From a virus (lineage: Duplodnaviria > Heunggongvirae > Uroviricota > Caudoviricetes), in IMG/VR virus record IMGVR_UViG_2671180710_000015: a stretch of 8,566 nucleotides of DNA. One strand, written 5' to 3'. Each line of letters opens with the position of its first letter. Position 1 is the first letter of the stretch. The position numbers and the translations under genes are program-made. The notes beneath the pieces were generated by a model, which made no database searches, was not told the DNA's origin, and was given only the letters and a program-made list of their open reading frames with translations. Below, one piece after another: positions 1,087 through 8,566 of this stretch.

Positions 1087-1575
1087 TCAGTGTTTTAAGC
1101 CAGTTGGTGGCTTAGGGATGGGGAACCGATTTGAGGAGACATTAGCGGCATTGAGTTTTTTAACCTCTTTTTTCCCAATGCTGCCGATCTTGCGGTGGGT
1201 GAACTGGGCCAGCTTAAACGCGGCATCTAAAGCCAGTTTTGGATCTGTGTCCATGTTGTCAATCAGTATCCTGCCCATTGCTTTGATGGGGTCGGGTAGG
1301 CCGTTATCCATCATCTCAATGGTGTTAATTGATGCCCGTTCCGGTGTAACTTTTTCGGTAACTTTCTTTGTAACTTTTTTCGGTTTTGTAACCTGAAAAG
1401 TTACATCAGAAGTTACAGCCTTAAGATACTTTTTCACCTCCGGATCATTGGATAGCTGCCAGCCTTTAACCCTTGCAGTCTTTTCGCTGTATCCCGCATG
1501 TATCGCGGCTTCCGTTGGATTTGTGCCCTTTGATAACGCATCAGCAAACCGCTTTTTTTTGGTCGTTAATGCCAT
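1087..1575 (-). CDS. terS: terminase small subunit (P27/Terminase_2-like HTH N-terminus)
   Basis: From the internal Met: MALTTKKKRFADALSKGTNPTEAAIHAGYSEKTARVKGWQLSNDPEVKKYL matches the remembered TerS N-terminal pattern (K..F...L..GN.T.AAI.AGYS.KTA). GAGG SD about 9 nt upstream of ATG 1573-1575. The track ORF extends to 1692 across repeats and a homopolymer tract, so that extension is probably not translated. Confidence 0.8.
   Translation of the reverse strand: MALTTKKKRFADALSKGTNPTEAAIHAGYSEKTARVKGWQLSNDPEVKKYLKAVTSDVTFQVTKPKKVTKKVTEKVTPERASINTIEMMDNGLPDPIKAMGRILIDNMDTDPKLALDAAFKLAQFTHRKIGSIGKKEVKKLNAANVSSNRFPIPKPPTGLKH
1346..1416. repeat. phased GTAAC repeat array inside terS (12-bp unit GTAACTTTTTCG-like; six copies, two inverted)
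   Basis: GTAAC at 1346, 1358, 1370 and 1388; inverted GTTAC at 1400 and 1412. Spacing is 12 bp within each triplet. On the coding strand this encodes the KKVT/EKVT peptide repeat of TerS. Confidence 0.7.
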
Positions 1576-1599
1576 GCAAAAACCTCGTTTTGAGGGGGT

Positions 1600-1621
1600 G
1601 TAACTTTTCGTGTAACTTTTT
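1600..1621. repeat. two further GTAACTTTT copies in the terS leader (non-coding), same 12-bp phasing
   Basis: GTAACTTTTCGT GTAACTTTTTTG at 1600-1621, immediately upstream of the terS SD and start. Confidence 0.6.
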
Positions 1622-1704
1622 TGAAAAGCAAAATTTTCTATGAATGAGACGGGGGGCGGTGTCCAGGGCGATCGACTTTCCGGCCGGAACACTCCCCCCC
1701 CCTG

Positions 1705-2181: not shown

Positions 2182-2454
2182 TTAGCTGTCTGGGTAATTA
2201 CGCCATACTTCATCGCCTGCACCATCTATACCCATTTCAGCATAAGTGCGATCGACTGCCTTTCTCAGGTCTCCGAAGTTATCCGGCGGCTCCGGTGGCT
2301 TCTGTGCCTTCCTGGAACATTCCAGCCGTCGCATCGTAACCTGATACCGTTCCTTGTCTGTCTCCACCAGCTGCATGACTTCACCCCATCGCGCCGCCGC
2401 CCTCCGGTAAAATCCTTTCGCCTCGAGTTCCTCCGCTATGCGGTCATGTACCAT
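2182..2454 (-). CDS. PerC-family-like small transcriptional regulator (about 90 aa)
   Basis: Motif AEELEAKGFYRRAAARWGEVM resembles the remembered PerC/Pch signature. Start chosen at ATG 2452-2454 with a GGGGGTGAGG SD just after the SSB stop; the 126-aa track ORF would overlap SSB by about 100 nt. Confidence 0.5.
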   Translation of the reverse strand: MVHDRIAEELEAKGFYRRAAARWGEVMQLVETDKERYQVTMRRLECSRKAQKPPEPPDNFGDLRKAVDRTYAEMGIDGAGDEVWRNYPDS

Positions 2455-2464
2455 CCTCACCCCC

Positions 2465-2863
2465 TCAGAACGGAATACCATCACCGTAAGGGTCATCGCC
2501 TCCCGCTGGTGGCTGATTACCCTGTGTGCCTGTGGTTTTGCGTCTGTTCCCGCCTCGGGCACTGATTACGCTGTCTGCGATAACCTGCCAGCCCTGCCGC
2601 GTTTCGCCGTTCTGGCCTGTCCACTGGCTTACCTGCATCGTGCCGGATACGCTGGCAACATCGCCTTTTTGATGTTTAGCCAGGAAGTCGGCCTGTTTGC
2701 CAAATGCGATGACCGATAACCATAACGTCGCCTGTCCGTCCTGTGCCTGGCTGCATGGCAAAGATACCGCCATACGCGCCAGCGTCATCGGTGTGCCCTT
2801 GCTGGTCTGTTTTACCTGCGGGTCGTCCACCAGCCGCCCGTAAGCGGCTATCTGTGCCGTCAT
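2465..2863 (-). CDS. ssb: single-stranded DNA-binding protein
   Basis: OB-fold pattern WLSVIAFGKQADFLAKHQKGDVASVSGTMQVSQWTGQNGETRQGW and the diagnostic acidic C-terminal tail DDPYGDGIPF. GGAGAGG SD; ATGA start/stop overlap with the upstream ORF. Confidence 0.9.
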   Translation of the reverse strand: MTAQIAAYGRLVDDPQVKQTSKGTPMTLARMAVSLPCSQAQDGQATLWLSVIAFGKQADFLAKHQKGDVASVSGTMQVSQWTGQNGETRQGWQVIADSVISARGGNRRKTTGTQGNQPPAGGDDPYGDGIPF

Positions 2864-3111
2864 AATTCCACCTCTCCGGTTTTAACGTTGATGGTTGTTA
2901 CCTGTTCCGCTTCGGCAATCTCCCGTTCTGTCAGCGTGGCAAAGTTTGCCGCCGCCGTGGTCATGAATGCGCTTATCAGGTCGGGATGTTCCTTCGCGTA
3001 TCCTTCCCGCGTGTGGCGGTCTATCGTTCTGATTGCCACCTTTAAGGTGTGCTCAGTCATGTCTAACGCTTTATATTTTGGCTCTGTTCTGTCTCTGCGT
3101 TTTTGGGTCAT
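2860..3111 (-). CDS. hypothetical protein (about 83 aa) translationally coupled to ssb
   Basis: Track ORF 2860-3141; its stop overlaps the ssb ATG (tcat at 2860-2863). Start placed at Met 3109-3111 (GAGAGG SD) because the longer form runs into the ori iterons. No recognisable family. Confidence 0.45.
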   Translation of the reverse strand: MTQKRRDRTEPKYKALDMTEHTLKVAIRTIDRHTREGYAKEHPDLISAFMTTAAANFATLTEREIAEAEQVTTINVKTGEVEL

Positions 3112-3119
3112 TTCTCGCA

Positions 3120-3315
3120 ACCTCTCACTTTTTCGCCTCACTTTTTCAAGCGTCTCACTTCGTCGCAGTTGGGATTTTCGGTTTTTCTATGTGTGTGTTT
3201 CATAAGTATTTTTTTACCCCCTCACTTTTGAGGATGTATACAGGTCGAAAAGTGAGGGAGAGCGGGCTAATTTTGGCCCTCTTTCTATCCCCCTCGCTTT
3301 TGCTCCTCACTTTTA
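3120..3315. repeat. iteron-type replication origin (seven CCTCACTTTT-like repeats plus AT-rich tract)
   Basis: CTCACTT cores at 3124, 3137, 3154, 3221 and 3306; inverted copy AAGTGAG at 3250; variant CTCGCTT at 3293. AT-rich tract about 3182-3218. Lies immediately 3' of the rep gene. Confidence 0.6.
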
Positions 3316-4710
3316 TAGCGGCGCTACATCATCCCCATCGATACGAATAACCCCATCTTTTTCCAGCTTGTACAGCCAGCGCCGGAAGTTTTTCATTTCA
3401 TACCCCAGCTTTTTCATGTCATCACGTAACAGCGGGATCGTGCACTTGTCGCCGTTCTGTGTGCGTGAACGGATGCACCCCCATAGCGCGGTATGGTTTT
3501 CCGTCTTGTTCCCTGCCTCCTCGATGCGCTCCAGTTCAACAGGAGGGCGCGGATCATCCACCACCACCAGCGACGTGATTAATTCACCGTCAGCGTCGGT
3601 AAAAAGCTCCACCACGCGTAAGTCATATGCGGCTTCTTTGAGTTCCTCCGCGTCCTTCATTTTGGTGCATGAGATAACCAGCGCTTCGCTTCCTGCGTCC
3701 TCCCTGCGTATCCGGTATTCAGCATCCAGCGAAGCACGAAATGCACTGGAACCGCGCGCGCCTTTCGTCTCATCCTTGCCGGAATGGTGAACCACCAGCA
3801 CCGTGGCCCCTGTGCGTCGTTTAAGCTCGTCACAACCACGGATAAACGCCCCCATATCACGGGAATCATTTTCATCATTCCCACCAAAGCAACGCGCCAG
3901 AGTATCCAGAATAATCATGCGTACAGGTTTACCCGTTTCCCGCTCCACCTGACGGGCAGCGATAACCATTTCATCAACATCAAGCGGGGCAGCCGGAAAG
4001 ATGGGACGGTTTACCAGATACAGATTTTTCACCTGTTCACCGTGCACAACCTCCCAGGCTTTTACACGACGCGGAACGCCGATACCGCCTTCACCAACCA
4101 CATAGAGAACCGCACCATGCGCCACCCTGCGGCCTCCCCACTGGCGGCCCGTGGAAACGTGACACGCCCACGATCCGGCAAGGAATGATTTATAGGAACC
4201 GCTCGCCCCGTATATGCTGCAAAGCGATACCGCCGGAATAATTCCCTTCACCACGTAATCAAGCTGCGTGTCGTATCCGGCAGATCCCACGCTCATTGGT
4301 AGCTTGGTTTTTCGCTGGTGGCTCAGGCTTTCCCCGCGTTCCCATGTCTCCCTAAGCCGTGGAAGCTGGTCGCTCCATTCCTCCAGCAATTCGAAATTTT
4401 CAGAAAACAGGCGCGCTTCCTGGACTCCTGCGATTGCCAGTTTCGTGGCGATGGTTAACAACTGCACTTCGTCAATATTTCCGGCACGTATCACTTTCGC
4501 CCTGTATCGCCCATCATCCACAATCTGGAGGTTATCCAGTTCGCTTAACTGATAACGCCCCAGGTAAACGGGAGGGACTGGATCGCCTGCTTTTTTGGCC
4601 TGTGCAATGATGTAGTACTCTGCAAATGAGTGAGCATTATCACCCGCAAAAATAACCGCTTCGGTGTGTTTATCTTTCGGTAACAGTTTTACGTTCGGTG
4701 CCAGTTTCAT
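3313..4710 (-). CDS. replication initiator/helicase (RecA-fold AAA_25, DnaB/RepA-like) with winged-helix-like C-terminus
   Basis: 465 aa. Walker A GASGSYKS, Walker B-like MIILDTLARCF, LVVHHSGKDETKGARGSSA. Not P4 alpha-like: no SF3, toprim or zinc-finger motifs seen. ATGA overlap with the upstream 99-aa ORF. Confidence 0.85.
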   Translation of the reverse strand: MKLAPNVKLLPKDKHTEAVIFAGDNAHSFAEYYIIAQAKKAGDPVPPVYLGRYQLSELDNLQIVDDGRYRAKVIRAGNIDEVQLLTIATKLAIAGVQEARLFSENFELLEEWSDQLPRLRETWERGESLSHQRKTKLPMSVGSAGYDTQLDYVVKGIIPAVSLCSIYGASGSYKSFLAGSWACHVSTGRQWGGRRVAHGAVLYVVGEGGIGVPRRVKAWEVVHGEQVKNLYLVNRPIFPAAPLDVDEMVIAARQVERETGKPVRMIILDTLARCFGGNDENDSRDMGAFIRGCDELKRRTGATVLVVHHSGKDETKGARGSSAFRASLDAEYRIRREDAGSEALVISCTKMKDAEELKEAAYDLRVVELFTDADGELITSLVVVDDPRPPVELERIEEAGNKTENHTALWGCIRSRTQNGDKCTIPLLRDDMKKLGYEMKNFRRWLYKLEKDGVIRIDGDDVAPL

Positions 4711-5006
4711 TTTTTACCCCTGAATCCGTTAATCATGGTTTTCAGCTTCTGGATGTTTTCCCGTGCTCTGGCGTTGCTGGTGGGCACGTTATGCGGCGCG
4801 GTCTGTACCAGAGAAAAATCACGCCGGAACTGATAAACAGGCATCACGCAATCATATTCGTAACCTTCACGGCGGTAAGTTACGCACCGTCCCGCCACGC
4901 CCTTAATCATTACCGTGCCGCCGTACTGGTCGCGGTAAATATCACCGCGCGTAAATTTAGGGTGAGTGTTGCCACTGGCAGTTAAGCCAGAATATTTAAG
5001 TTTCAT
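4707..5006 (-). CDS. hypothetical protein (99 aa) coupled to rep
   Basis: Track ORF. GGAGA SD 9 nt upstream of ATG 5004-5006; its stop overlaps the rep start. No family recognised. Confidence 0.55.
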   Translation of the reverse strand: MKLKYSGLTASGNTHPKFTRGDIYRDQYGGTVMIKGVAGRCVTYRREGYEYDCVMPVYQFRRDFSLVQTAPHNVPTSNARARENIQKLKTMINGFRGKK

Positions 5007-5011
5007 TATTT

Positions 5012-5239
5012 TTATTCTCCGGTGTGGGGCGCTTTATTATTTTCGATAATATCCATTGCCTTATCCAGTTCATCAATAACAGGCGATAGTAATGTCTGAA
5101 TGGCTGCAAACATTAATGACGAAGATTCTTCGCCAGATTCCGGCACTTCAATTAATTTGCCTAACAACGCATTCATTTCCTTTGCGCGGATTAATGCGTT
5201 TTCAGAATGAATAAGAACATCAAAGGGTATTTTATGCAT
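5012..5239 (-). CDS. hypothetical protein (75 aa)
   Basis: Track ORF, G-rich SD; 8-nt overlap with the upstream ORF and 5-nt gap to the downstream ORF. Predicted helical, acidic. Confidence 0.5.
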   Translation of the reverse strand: MHKIPFDVLIHSENALIRAKEMNALLGKLIEVPESGEESSSLMFAAIQTLLSPVIDELDKAMDIIENNKAPHTGE

Positions 5240-5429
5240 GACTCACCCCCTGGCGAATACGGGCGGCGAATACAGCAACACAACCGGACGGGCAACGGCT
5301 ACGCGCTTCGCGTTCCGTCCAGGCGGTTACGTGGATGATTTGAGATTCTCCGGCACTCAGTGCCAGAAAACGCCACACAAAGGCCGTTTGTGTGTGTGCT
5401 AGTCGTGGGGTATGATTTACGGCAACCAT
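5232..5429 (-). CDS. hypothetical protein (65 aa), first ORF of the rep operon
   Basis: Track ORF with AGAGAGG SD 7 nt upstream. Contains an 8-bp hairpin (CACACAAA-ggccg-TTTGTGTG, 5374-5394), so a structured leader RNA is an alternative reading. Confidence 0.35.
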   Translation of the reverse strand: MVAVNHTPRLAHTQTAFVWRFLALSAGESQIIHVTAWTEREARSRCPSGCVAVFAARIRQGVSHA

Positions 5430-5502
5430 AAATTTACCTCTCTATAGTGTTTGTGGTTAGACGCCCTGCATGTGTTCCAGCACTGTGGGGCGTTGTTTTT
5501 TG

Positions 5503-5547
5503 GTGCAAGTCACCTTGAAATCTAGGTTACTTTTAGGTGACTTGCAC
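5503..5547. promoter_or_regulatory. paired operator-like sites: 12-bp perfect inverted repeat GTGCAAGTCACC-N21-GGTGACTTGCAC
   Basis: Arms at 5503-5514 and 5536-5547 are exact reverse complements. Each arm is itself GGTG-N5-CACC-like. Located in the divergent region between the rep operon and the plus-strand RHH gene. Confidence 0.45.
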
Positions 5548-5574
5548 TTCAAGTCTTTTTTTATTTTTTTTTCT
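5539..5574 (+). terminator. terminator-like hairpin plus long T-tract (alternatively an UP element or insulator)
   Basis: GACTTG-cactt-CAAGTC (5539-5555) followed by T8-A-T10 (5556-5574). It overlaps the right operator arm and sits just upstream of a TATACT -10 (5578-5583). Confidence 0.3.
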
Positions 5575-5613
5575 CCGTATACTGAACACCACCTAACAGT
5601 AAGGAGAACAGAG

Positions 5614-5793
5614 ATGCCAACAGGTACAACCAACAACAAGTCACAACAAAAAACTGCTAGAGTACCTCTAGACGTTTTAAGCGAAATGAATTTGGTAAAA
5701 GAAGAAAACGAAACAGACGCACAATTTATCGTTACTGCCATGCGCGGCGAAATCAAACGCCGCCAGCGTCGCAAGGCCAAAGAATCAGAATAA
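5614..5793 (+). CDS. small ribbon-helix-helix-like DNA-binding protein (59 aa)
   Basis: Hand-defined start: AAGGAG SD (5601-5606) 7 nt before ATG 5614. MPTGTTNNKSQQKTARVPLDVLSEMNLVKEENETDAQFIVTAMRGEIKRRQRRKAKESE shows a strand-helix-turn-helix pattern. The 107-aa track ORF is an N-terminal over-extension across the operator and T-tract. Confidence 0.5.
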   Translation: MPTGTTNNKSQQKTARVPLDVLSEMNLVKEENETDAQFIVTAMRGEIKRRQRRKAKESE

Positions 5794-5850
5794 TCACTAT
5801 CAGCGCCGTGGTGTGAGGTACTACGGCGCATTGCTTTACAGGGCAGTACC

Positions 5851-6078
5851 ATGACCAACAACACACTATCACCAATACAAGACACGCAAACGCAAGATGA
5901 TGAAATCATCCGGCAAAGGCAGTCAGAAGCCTGCGCCAGACTTGAGGAAGAACTAACCAGAACAAAAATACCACCACCAGCGCCGCGCTTAGTGCCACCA
6001 GAAAAATTTGCCCTTGAAGATTTTGTCGATAAATACCCACGGCGGCTTAAATCCGGCAAAAACCGACCGCCAGGATGA
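5851..6078 (+). CDS. hypothetical protein (75 aa), acidic N-terminus, Pro-rich basic C-terminus
   Basis: Track ORF. Weak SD; preceded by hairpin GCGCCGT-N13-ACGGCGC (5803-5829) and followed by hairpin GAAACGG-attatt-CCGTTTC (6098-6117). No family recognised. Confidence 0.4.
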   Translation: MTNNTLSPIQDTQTQDDEIIRQRQSEACARLEEELTRTKIPPPAPRLVPPEKFALEDFVDKYPRRLKSGKNRPPG

Positions 6079-6297
6079 GTGCACAAAACCGAACTATGAA
6101 ACGGATTATTCCGTTTCCGGGGCGTTTGTGTGTGTATAAAGAGTAAGCTATGCTCTTTTATAGCCATAATCGTTACCTCAATTAATGGTTTGGTTAGAAG
6201 CCCGTTGGTGTTCATAGCGCCAGCGGGCTTTGCTTTTTGTGTTGATTGTGTGTAATATGTCACTACACATAAATACATTACATGAGGTGTAATTAAC

Positions 6298-6477
6298 ATG
6301 TCAATACACAAAAACGAAAGGCGTGGTAATCCTCCGTTCCAGTTCCGTTTAGATCCTGACTTACGGGAAAAGATGGAAAAGGCACAACAACATGACGGCG
6401 ATGATTCTCTTGCTGCCTGGATAAAGCGAATAATCCGCAAAGAATTACAGCAACGCGGCATAGAACCCAAAGGGTAA
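6298..6477 (+). CDS. Arc/MetJ-type ribbon-helix-helix DNA-binding protein (59 aa), below ORF-track cutoff
   Basis: Hand-translated: MSIHKNERRGNPPFQFRLDPDLREKMEKAQQHDGDDSLAAWIKRIIRKELQQRGIEPKG; PFQFRLDP strand plus two helices is the classic Arc-like pattern. GAGGTG SD; candidate promoter TTGCTT-N17-TAATAT (6230-6258); GTGTAAT repeats at 6250 and 6287. Confidence 0.6.
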   Translation: MSIHKNERRGNPPFQFRLDPDLREKMEKAQQHDGDDSLAAWIKRIIRKELQQRGIEPKG

Positions 6478-6565
6478 TTACATTGCCCACCAGCCTGATA
6501 GCGGCTATCATTCCCGTGCTTATGTTTGGGATCACATAAGGCGCAGCAGGTTAATTGTTCACAAG

Positions 6566-6594
6566 GGCGTTCCGGCAACGGGGCGCTTTTTGTT
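6566..6594 (+). terminator. intrinsic terminator (GNRA tetraloop hairpin plus U-run) closing the plus-strand module
   Basis: 9-bp stem GGCGTTCCG / CGGGGCGCT with three G-U wobbles, GCAA loop (6575-6578), then TTTTTGTT. Sits 28 nt from the convergent alpA stop. Confidence 0.5.
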
Positions 6595-6621
6595 ATGTTC
6601 ATCGTGTTATGCCTCACACCA

Positions 6622-6828
6622 TTACGCAGCCGTTCCGCGTGCTTCCTGCTCACGTTCTTTCATCCATGCGATTACGTCTTCCTCATACCATCCGCGACGG
6701 CGTAAACCAACGCGAAAACCCTGCGGAAATTCTCCGGCGTTGATCATGCTTTGAAGCGTGCTGTCTGCCTTGATGTGGATAAGTTTTTTTACTTCCTGGC
6801 GAAAGATGACTTTTTTGATTGCTTCCAT
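6622..6828 (-). CDS. alpA: AlpA-family phage transcriptional regulator
   Basis: 68 aa; STLQSMINAGEFPQGFRVGLRRRGWYEEDVIAWM matches the AlpA HTH family pattern. AAGG SD. Co-directional with int as in Gram-negative PICIs. Confidence 0.85.
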   Translation of the reverse strand: MEAIKKVIFRQEVKKLIHIKADSTLQSMINAGEFPQGFRVGLRRRGWYEEDVIAWMKEREQEARGTAA

Positions 6829-7324: not shown

Positions 7325-8566
7325 CTAAACGGCTCGGATACCCCTTTTACCACTGGCGAGGGTTACGCCCGTCGCCGCAGCCTCGACAAATTCGCCCCAC
7401 CAGCGCATAAGCACCACGCGTTTTTCTATGTAGTTGCTCCGGTTGTATGCCCGTCTCACTTCGTTAGTGTCGACGTGGGCAAGTGCGGCCTCGATTACGT
7501 CCGGCTCGAATCCTTCCTCGTTCGCTGCTGTACTGAATATGGCGCGTAATCCATGAGACACCAGCACGCCAGCGAACCCCATGCGTCGTAATGCTGCGTT
7601 TGCTGTCTGGCTGTTCATTGGCTGCCGTGGGTCTTTCAGACTCGGGAAAACATAATCGCGGTGGTGGCTGATTGGTTTCATGGCCTCCAGCACCGCCATA
7701 GCCTGACCGGAAAGTGGGATAACGTGATCCCTGCGCATCTTCATGCGTCCGGCGGGTATCGTCCAGCGTTGCGCGTCCAGGTCGATTTCATCCCACCGCG
7801 TTGATGACGCTTCGGCGGGACGGGTTACGGTCAGTAACTGCCATTCAATCAGTAATCTGGTCTGCCGTTCTGTTGCCGATACTGATAAAGCCTGCATAAG
7901 CTCCGGCAACTGTTCGGGGCGGATTGTTGGCATATGTTTTTTTACAGGGGAGGGGAACGCCTTACGCACATTCATAGCCGGATTGGCATCAATCAGCCCA
8001 CTGTTGGCGGCGTAATCCATTACCTCATTAACGCGCTGTAAAACCCGTTTGAGTGTTTCCAGGTTGCCGCGCTCCTTGATGGGGGTAAGCACCTCAACGA
8101 ACCTGCGAGCGGTCAGGGTGTCTATTGGGGTGTTGCCGATGAACGGGAATACATATTTATCCAGCGATCGCCAGATGTCTTTAATCGTGTTGGGGGCCAG
8201 ATTCTGGCTGATTTTCACCTGGTACCATGCCGCCGCCACATTTTCGAACGTGTTCCCTTGTCTTCGGGCCTCTGCCTCTCGTTTTTTCTTCTCATGGCCC
8301 TGCGGGTCAGTTCCGGCACTGATTAACGCTCTGTACTCGCTACGGCGTTTTCTGGCATCAGCCAGGGAAACATCATCAAGCGATCCAAAACTCAGCAATA
8401 TTCTTTTTTTGTCCGATGGCCGGTAGTAGGAAAATCGCCAGAGTTTTGATCCGGACGGTTTGACCAGGAGAAAAAGCCCTCCGCCGTCCTGTAGGGTGTA
8501 TTCCTTTTCCGCTGGTCTGGCTGCTTTGATCTGCACCGTGGTTAATGGGGGTGTTTTTCTCGCCAT
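7325..8566 (-). CDS. int: tyrosine-type site-specific integrase, P4-like
   Basis: 413 aa. N-terminus MARKTPPLTTVQIKAARPAEKEYTLQDGGGLFLLVKPSGSKLWRFSYY matches the P4-integrase arm-binding pattern; C-terminal HGLRAIFSTAA and RRAYNRSNY carry the His/Arg box and catalytic Tyr. ATG is the last codon of the window, so an upstream start cannot be excluded. Confidence 0.9.
   Translation of the reverse strand: MARKTPPLTTVQIKAARPAEKEYTLQDGGGLFLLVKPSGSKLWRFSYYRPSDKKRILLSFGSLDDVSLADARKRRSEYRALISAGTDPQGHEKKKREAEARRQGNTFENVAAAWYQVKISQNLAPNTIKDIWRSLDKYVFPFIGNTPIDTLTARRFVEVLTPIKERGNLETLKRVLQRVNEVMDYAANSGLIDANPAMNVRKAFPSPVKKHMPTIRPEQLPELMQALSVSATERQTRLLIEWQLLTVTRPAEASSTRWDEIDLDAQRWTIPAGRMKMRRDHVIPLSGQAMAVLEAMKPISHHRDYVFPSLKDPRQPMNSQTANAALRRMGFAGVLVSHGLRAIFSTAANEEGFEPDVIEAALAHVDTNEVRRAYNRSNYIEKRVVLMRWWGEFVEAAATGVTLASGKRGIRAV

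Follow-up and report, generated by a model that had tools for sequence, protein, structure and literature searches.

A putative iteron replication origin beside a RecA-fold helicase-initiator gene in a Gram-negative PICI, and covariation of its iterons with one initiator residue

Genes of the element

In the window, i.e., the whole 8,566-nt stretch of DNA that was analyzed here, all sizeable genes lie on the minus strand. An array of short repeats with an AT-rich tract is found immediately 3' of a rep gene and ahead of a gene for an 83-aa protein. The genes and coding regions on which the following sections draw are listed below.

7325-8566, minus strand: tyrosine integrase
6622-6828, minus strand: AlpA-like HTH gene (weak match, E = 0.003, below the Pfam cut-off)
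4707-5006, minus strand: DUF4222 gene (Pfam), which overlaps the start of rep and always accompanies rep
3313-4710, minus strand: rep, encoding a 465-aa initiator-helicase that matches phrog_2850 over its full length
3316-3501, minus strand: part of rep encoding the predicted winged-helix domain (residues 404-465)
3388-3390, minus strand: codon AAC of N441, which immediately precedes the third helix of that domain and tracks the variable iteron base
2860-3111, minus strand: gene for the 83-aa protein (phrog_1231; PHROG match over residues 1-82 of 83)
2465-2863, minus strand: SSB gene (Pfam SSB, E = 1.6e-16; NCBIfam ssb)
2182-2562, minus strand: PerC-family activator gene, after the SSB gene (Pfam, E = 1.4e-42)
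1087-1692, minus strand: small terminase gene, TerS (phrog_641)

The window also encodes an Icd-like gene and a capsid-family gene. The island SSB is likely an accessory replication factor. The listed PerC ORF begins inside the SSB gene, so its true start is probably further downstream. Between the AlpA-like and Icd-like genes lies a 398-aa ORF (5457-6653, minus strand) of low GC content and strong AT skew, for which no match was found in Pfam, NCBIfam, PHROGs, or PADLOC. The slot that it occupies is variable, in that related islands carry other genes there, and the ORF may be accessory cargo.

The closest relative among complete genomes was found in strain CD45 (87% coverage, 92% identity), in which the related island is ~9 kb long and is located between tRNA-Pro/yejM and yejO. 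Because the tRNA-Pro/yejM region is a listed attachment site for Gram-negative phage-inducible chromosomal islands (PICIs), the window is interpreted as almost the whole of a ~9-kb Gram-negative PICI, a small phage satellite of E. coli. The features of such an element that were found are an integrase, an AlpA-type regulator (the weak match given above), a one-directional operon, a length in the range of ~8-15 kb, and, in the CD45 relative, a PICI attachment site. A capsid-forming PICI had been assumed initially, because the island with the best match to the rep region carries a full head-and-terminase module, but comparison of the whole window identified the ~9-kb classical PICI instead. The rep-ori module is also present in that larger type of island, at phoQ-roxA, together with a complete head and terminase set, and is therefore common to a classical PICI and a capsid-forming PICI; the capsid-forming PICI literature that was examined makes no mention of an origin. 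Sequence related to the window was detected in 1,798 of 5,426 complete Escherichia coli genomes, i.e., in about a third.

The repeat array and the Rep protein

The region between rep and the downstream gene contains seven copies of a ~10-nt repeat, hereafter called iterons, which are numbered from the rep side.

3305-3314, minus strand: iteron 1, AAAAGTGAGG on the sense strand, found at the same position in 44 distinct related origins
3292-3301, minus strand: iteron 2, variant AAAAGCGAGG, spaced 13 nt from iteron 1; the copy at this position is perfect in relatives
3248-3257, plus strand: iteron 3, exact, inverted relative to the others
3235-3242, unstranded: TGTATACA palindrome, midway between inverted iteron 3 and direct iteron 4
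3220-3229, minus strand: iteron 4, exact
3166-3218, unstranded: AT-rich tract of 53 nt, A-rich on the sense strand; candidate DNA-unwinding region
3152-3161, minus strand: iteron 5, variant GAAGTGAGAC
3136-3145, minus strand: iteron 6, exact
3123-3132, minus strand: iteron 7, variant AAAAGTGAGA

Four of the seven iterons are exact CCTCACTTTT 10-mers, and the other three differ by 1-2 bases (TCTCACTTTT, GTCTCACTTC, and CCTCGCTTTT as read in the window). They form two sets, with four copies on the rep side and three beyond the AT-rich tract. An earlier note on this DNA had described seven repeats, one inverted and one variant; the total of seven and the single inverted copy (3248-3257) were recovered, but with three variants present the count of one was too low. 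Iterons 3 and 4 form a perfect inverted repeat of 11 nt, and with the TGTATACA core they make up a near-palindrome of ~40 nt.

In a motif count, CTC[AG]CTT occurred seven times in 3123-3314 and eight times in the whole window, and CTCACTT had six copies inside the 190-nt array stretch and seven in the window when both strands were counted. When the window was simulated 300 times with a first-order Markov model, six copies of a 7-mer within 200 nt were never obtained; the highest number was five in 200 nt, which occurred once. We confirmed that the repeats and the AT-rich tract are real and non-random. The tract that the earlier note had reported is 68% AT, compared with 51% for the window, and belongs to the least stable 2-4% (96th-98th percentile) of 50-nt stretches without being the minimum, so that its instability is only moderate. 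A short GTGTGTGTG run within the tract (3191-3199) was present in the close relatives of the window and absent from other origin lineages.

The two ends of the array required adjustment. The last iteron had been thought to overlap the final codons of rep; iteron 1 (3314-3305) does share 2 nt with the stop codon TAA (3315-3313), but it touches no sense codon. Likewise, the longest form of the downstream ORF, starting at GTG-3141, does overlap two iterons as had been claimed, but this is an unlikely start. The start at ATG 3111 is backed by the relatives, by the RefSeq annotation, and by the full-length PHROG match, and in relatives the downstream ATG always lies at +199 to +202 relative to the rep stop. 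The likely true start therefore lies 12 nt beyond the last iteron, which would leave no actual overlap.

No DnaA-box-like, IHF-like, or GATC sites were found in 3050-3350. The only perfect DnaA box of the window, TTATCCACA, is a single copy at 6774-6782 on the minus strand, within the AlpA-like HTH ORF and far from the array. The terminator scan gave one terminator-like site, on the wrong strand and within chance, and the Rfam search gave only a chance-level match (SprD, E = 0.54).

Rep consists of an N-terminal domain of ~135 aa, a RecA-fold AAA_25 core at residues ~147-385 (Pfam, E = 1e-42), and a predicted C-terminal winged helix at residues 404-465. The only sequence match in the PDB was RSF1010 RepA (1g8y), which was weak (E = 0.013), and rep in relatives is labeled "helicase RepA family protein" in RefSeq. 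The fold matches of Rep were KaiC, Twinkle, T7 gp4, RadA, and a DnaB-family helicase, which are generic for the RecA fold. Rep is thus a RecA-fold, RepA/DnaB-like (SF4-type) protein and not an SF3 AAA+ protein. Full-length Rep was absent from phage genomes, in which the helicase core alone was matched, at ≤53% identity.

The AF2 model of full-length Rep was mediocre (pLDDT 67.5) and showed a C-terminal helix-helix-helix-strand-strand unit. When residues 394-465 were modeled alone, the pLDDT was 89.5 and the topology was H-H-H-beta-beta, with the third helix at 442-451 and the wing at 455-464, which places N441 at the start of the third helix. In the fold search, this domain matched winged-helix proteins only, the best being DNA-bound LexA, DtxR/IdeR, BlaI, MarR-type proteins, and linker histone at TM scores of 0.6-0.7, every E-value being non-significant, and no known initiator was among the matches. 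The C-terminal domain of Rep is predicted with high confidence to be a winged helix.

The N-terminal part of Rep differs in its relationships. Residues 1-135 (window 4306-4710) are 43% identical to the N-terminus of EcCICFT073 Pri-Rep (5242-5680 of locus L178), and as the rest of that protein is D5_N/SF3, one N-domain occurs on two unrelated helicase engines. In Xenorhabdus, related Reps have an N-terminal zinc-ribbon and Toprim primase, and the ~680-730-aa length of those from Serratia, Pectobacterium, and Morganella suggests that they do too. The E. coli form has a different N-domain of ~135 aa, which suggests that priming is probably performed by the host.

Iterons and Rep residue 441 across related loci

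The comparison covered 175 Rep-relative loci (one genome per species, viral contigs, and exact look-ups of chosen homologues; Enterobacterales genomes). In most of these loci, about 4-13 copies of a short repeat were found in the 330 nt after the rep stop. A single template describes 44 distinct origins of the E. coli clade: the TAA of rep, two direct iterons 13 nt apart, a spacer of about 35 nt, one or two inverted iterons, a TGTATA(C/T)A core, one direct iteron, an A-rich tract of ~50 nt, three to five direct iterons, and the ATG of the next gene. The equivalents of the A-rich tract in 43 distinct relatives had a mean AT content of 68% and a mean A content of 51%. The motif GTATA[TC][AG] was present, across iteron classes, in 96 of 150 distinct origins, compared with a background of 0.049 per 330 nt, and in most of those 96 origins it was located at +55 to +76 from the rep stop.

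The window origin is degenerate at two template positions that are occupied by iterons in its relatives, and it looks partly decayed. The array might therefore be the remnant of a decayed origin that is kept by descent while the island replicates via the helper phage or the host, and the three imperfect copies among the seven, as well as a natural variant with a collapsed origin (L121, described below), fit such a remnant. However, this partly degenerate array recurs almost without change in EcCI042 and several viral contigs, the rep gene alongside is intact and under purifying selection, and four perfect 10-mers persist, on both sides of the tract. We consider it very improbable that the array is only a remnant.

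The gene downstream of the array also varies among the loci, encoding the 83-aa protein, a 257-aa protein, or ProQ. This bears on another explanation, in which the repeats are operators by which Rep or another island regulator controls the transcription or translation of the 83-aa, SSB, and PerC genes, and there is no origin. The array does lie inside a one-directional operon and ends 12 nt before the downstream ATG, and its last copy supplies a GAGG-like sequence that resembles an RBS (the GAGAGG end of iteron 7, 9 nt upstream of ATG 3111). However, the promoter scan found no sigma-70-like promoter in 2800-3500, and the same array, with a constant length of ~200 nt, precedes all three of these unrelated genes. 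Furthermore, the characterized PICI and SaPI origins (PMC6092414, PMC9371898) have a matching layout of two iteron sets with an inverted pair and an A-rich tract. Operators in place of an origin are accordingly judged unlikely; the repeats may also serve as both origin and operator.

Some individual loci have exceptional structures. In L121 (IMGVR_UViG_2541047774_000008), two iterons follow rep and the next gene comes directly after them, so that the origin is collapsed; it looks as if the middle had been deleted by recombination between the flanking iteron sets. The loci L115 and L119 have Reps with N at the position discussed below and mostly GTGAGG iterons, with one GTGGGG in the last pair, and they may be recombinants or intermediates. 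A circular Klebsiella pneumoniae "plasmid" of 16,971 bp (CP018459.1, pKp_Goe_795-4; L182) is in fact a satellite-like element, with a rep gene of the S type at 5081-6445, an origin at 4867-5080 with AAGTGCGGCA iterons on the same template, an integrase, a capsid gene, and terminase genes. These features would fit an island of this kind in episomal form.

Across the loci, the AAGTG core of the repeat is constant, and the 3' half varies with one residue of the motif K-x-F-x-R-W-L-x-K-L near the C-terminus of Rep. In the window Rep, the residue is N441. Within AAAGTG[N]GG, the variable base is A when the residue is N, G when it is H or K, and C when it is S. The repeat types and the numbers of loci are as follows.

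K-N-F: aaaaaGTGAGGaa (GTGAGG), 46 of 51 loci
K-S-F: AaGTGCGGCAtt (GTGCGG), 24 of 24 loci
K-K-F: AaGTGGGGGA (GTGGGG), 28 of 29 loci
K-H-F: aaaGTGGGgA (GTGGGG), 36 loci
K-H-L: AaGTGGG followed by C, A, or T, 12 loci
(K/R)-G-F: mainly aaGTGCGC, 9 loci

For two Rep relatives (P0021 and P0076), GTGGGG iterons were forecast from the H residue before their loci were fetched, and both forecasts held. That Asn goes with A, and His or Lys with G, is in line with common amino-acid/base preferences.

Because the iterons adjoin the codons of the winged helix, some co-inheritance is expected from linkage alone. In this respect, two natural C-terminal domains of 66 aa were found whose sole difference is N441H. 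In the N form (L087 group), the variable base was A in 21 of 21 iterons, and in the H form (L118 group), 47 of 48 iterons had G. Over the last 240 nt, the rep genes of the two forms are 92% identical, with synonymous changes, the last 66 codons otherwise specifying the same amino acids, and the two origins are 69% identical with the iteron positions retained. The switch between N and H was also observed on three backgrounds (...FRRWLYKL, ...FSRWLRKL, and ...FRRWLGKL). Both the N441H pair and the recurrence on three backgrounds speak against linkage as the sole cause, although covariation of this kind is no proof of a direct contact between residue and base.

Three other candidates for the specificity factor were rejected. 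The same DUF4222 protein or tail can accompany any of the three E. coli iteron types, and the same Rep N-domain is likewise found beside more than one type. The identity of the downstream 83-aa protein is not sorted by iteron type, and its gene is replaceable by that for the 257-aa protein or ProQ.

Based on the natural covariation, we lean slightly toward the view that the iteron base is set by the residue at the third-helix start (N441 in the window Rep), with Asn specifying A, His or Lys specifying G, and Ser specifying C. If this is correct, one amino acid change together with a concerted change of the iterons would generate a new, mutually exclusive replicon, and several related satellites could coexist in one cell. 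Rep would then be a self-loading helicase-initiator of the SF4 type, a combination so far described for the SF3 enzymes of SaPIs.

The covariation of the repeat with Rep is also relevant to a third explanation, that the repeats are a pac or cosB-like packaging site bound by the TerS of the island. Terminase small subunits often recognize repeated short motifs, and the island does encode a TerS (1087-1692). However, the repeat type follows the winged-helix residue of Rep, and the array is always attached to the rep stop codon. The packaging genes also differ: the TerS of the window belongs to phrog_641, the phoQ-roxA island has a P27-family TerS with HNH and TerL, and EcCI042 has none annotated. 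The module has thus been found together with different sets of packaging genes and also without any, which makes a packaging site very unlikely.

We consider that 3112-3314 is very probably the vegetative replication origin of the PICI. The reading as an iteron origin, already proposed in the earlier note, is supported by the identity of the element, by the published layout of such origins, by the copy in EcCI042, and by the covariation of residue and iteron across the 175 loci. As in other PICI replication modules, the putative origin is immediately 3' of rep, two iteron sets flank an AT-rich tract, and a predicted C-terminal winged helix is matched, by covariation, to its own iterons.

From these features, the following course of replication can be proposed. 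Induction of the island by a helper phage would lead the rightward operon to produce Rep, which, by sequence match and predicted fold, is a protein of the RecA-fold hexameric-helicase type with a C-terminal winged helix. The winged helix would read the AAAAGTGAGG iterons, with N441 specifying the A of GTGAGG, as the natural covariation suggests. Bound to both iteron sets, including the inverted pair around TGTATACA, Rep might melt the A-rich tract or that core, and by analogy with SaPI Rep, it might then become the replicative helicase by self-loading, with no other protein acting as loader. The island SSB would coat the single strands, and the host would presumably supply priming, because Rep lacks the zinc-ribbon and Toprim primase domains that are fused to related Reps in other genera.

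The origin and its reader would show how these very common islands amplify after induction by a phage, and their pairing bears on which islands can share a cell. The pairs of iteron and reader suggest a route to small orthogonal replicons, and the natural N441H/A-to-G pairs offer a ready handle on the specificity between initiator and origin. For annotation purposes, the region is best labeled a PICI origin, with ATG 3111 as the start of the downstream gene.

Comparison with known systems

Rep_3-type initiators (pPS10 RepA, R6K pi, and F RepE) also place a winged helix on direct iterons beside an AT-rich unwinding region. These proteins are not helicases and depend on DnaA boxes and on the host DnaB/DnaC. 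In contrast, the Pfam search found no Rep_3 match among the window proteins, and the putative origin contains no DnaA box or IHF site. RSF1010 (IncQ) RepA belongs to the same Pfam family, AAA_25, as the core of the window Rep. In that plasmid, iteron binding falls to a second protein, RepC, and RepA itself lacks a domain for reading DNA. Unlike this combination of a stand-alone helicase with RepC, the window Rep has a fused, predicted winged helix, and the iteron class follows this domain.

P4 alpha combines a primase with an SF3 helicase, and its binding sites are divided between two distant regions, ori and crr. The window Rep differs from it in having no primase domain and in having a single compact array beside its gene. 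The two proteins are similar in that P4 alpha is a multifunctional initiator-helicase of a satellite with a C-terminal domain for repeated short sites (PMC6092414).

The SaPI Rep is both initiator and helicase, and its C-terminal winged helix binds iterons that lie right after rep, around a central AT-rich region (PMC9371898). The window shares this arrangement with the SaPI ori, including iterons directly after rep, some of which face in the opposite direction, and the central AT-rich region (PMC9371898). However, the SaPI Rep is an SF3 AAA+ protein, and the window Rep, with its RecA-fold AAA_25 core, has no sequence relationship to it; the iterons also differ in length (5-6 nt in SaPIs and ~9-10 nt in the window). 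The earlier description of the locus as a SaPI-type iteron origin beside an initiator-helicase gene is therefore apt for its layout and workings, but the RecA-fold, SF4-type Rep does not belong to the SF3 family of the SaPI enzymes.

For PICIs, the report by Fillol-Salom et al. (2018; PMC6092414) places the origin immediately 3' of the initiator gene, with two iteron sets flanking an AT-rich tract. In that study, the rep-ori segment of EcCICFT073 maintained a plasmid, and maintenance was reduced by deletion of rep or ori (PMC6092414). EcCICFT073 has the only functionally tested Gram-negative PICI origin, and its initiator belongs to a different helicase superfamily from the window Rep. The EcCICFT073 Pri-Rep is a D5_N/DUF5906/Pox_D5 protein (SF3, P4-alpha-like) that has only ~140 N-terminal amino acids in common with the window Rep (43% identity), and the Pfam search detected no D5_N or Pox_D5-type domains in the window Rep. 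The iterons of EcCICFT073 are of the GGTAGA(T/C)A type, unlike those of the window.

EcCI042 is listed in the same article, its Pri-Rep being one of four "allelic variants," and the supplement gives no iteron sequences (PMC6092414). The EcCI042 Rep is identical to the window Rep from residue ~140 to the end, and over the part compared, its intergenic region is virtually identical to 3100-3330 of the window, being one base shorter in an A run. Given this near-identity, the origin type and almost its exact sequence fall within what has already been described by inspection. The origin type is thus known, with a near-identical copy in a published island, and the covariation of residue and iteron and the SF4-type initiator are useful refinements of it.
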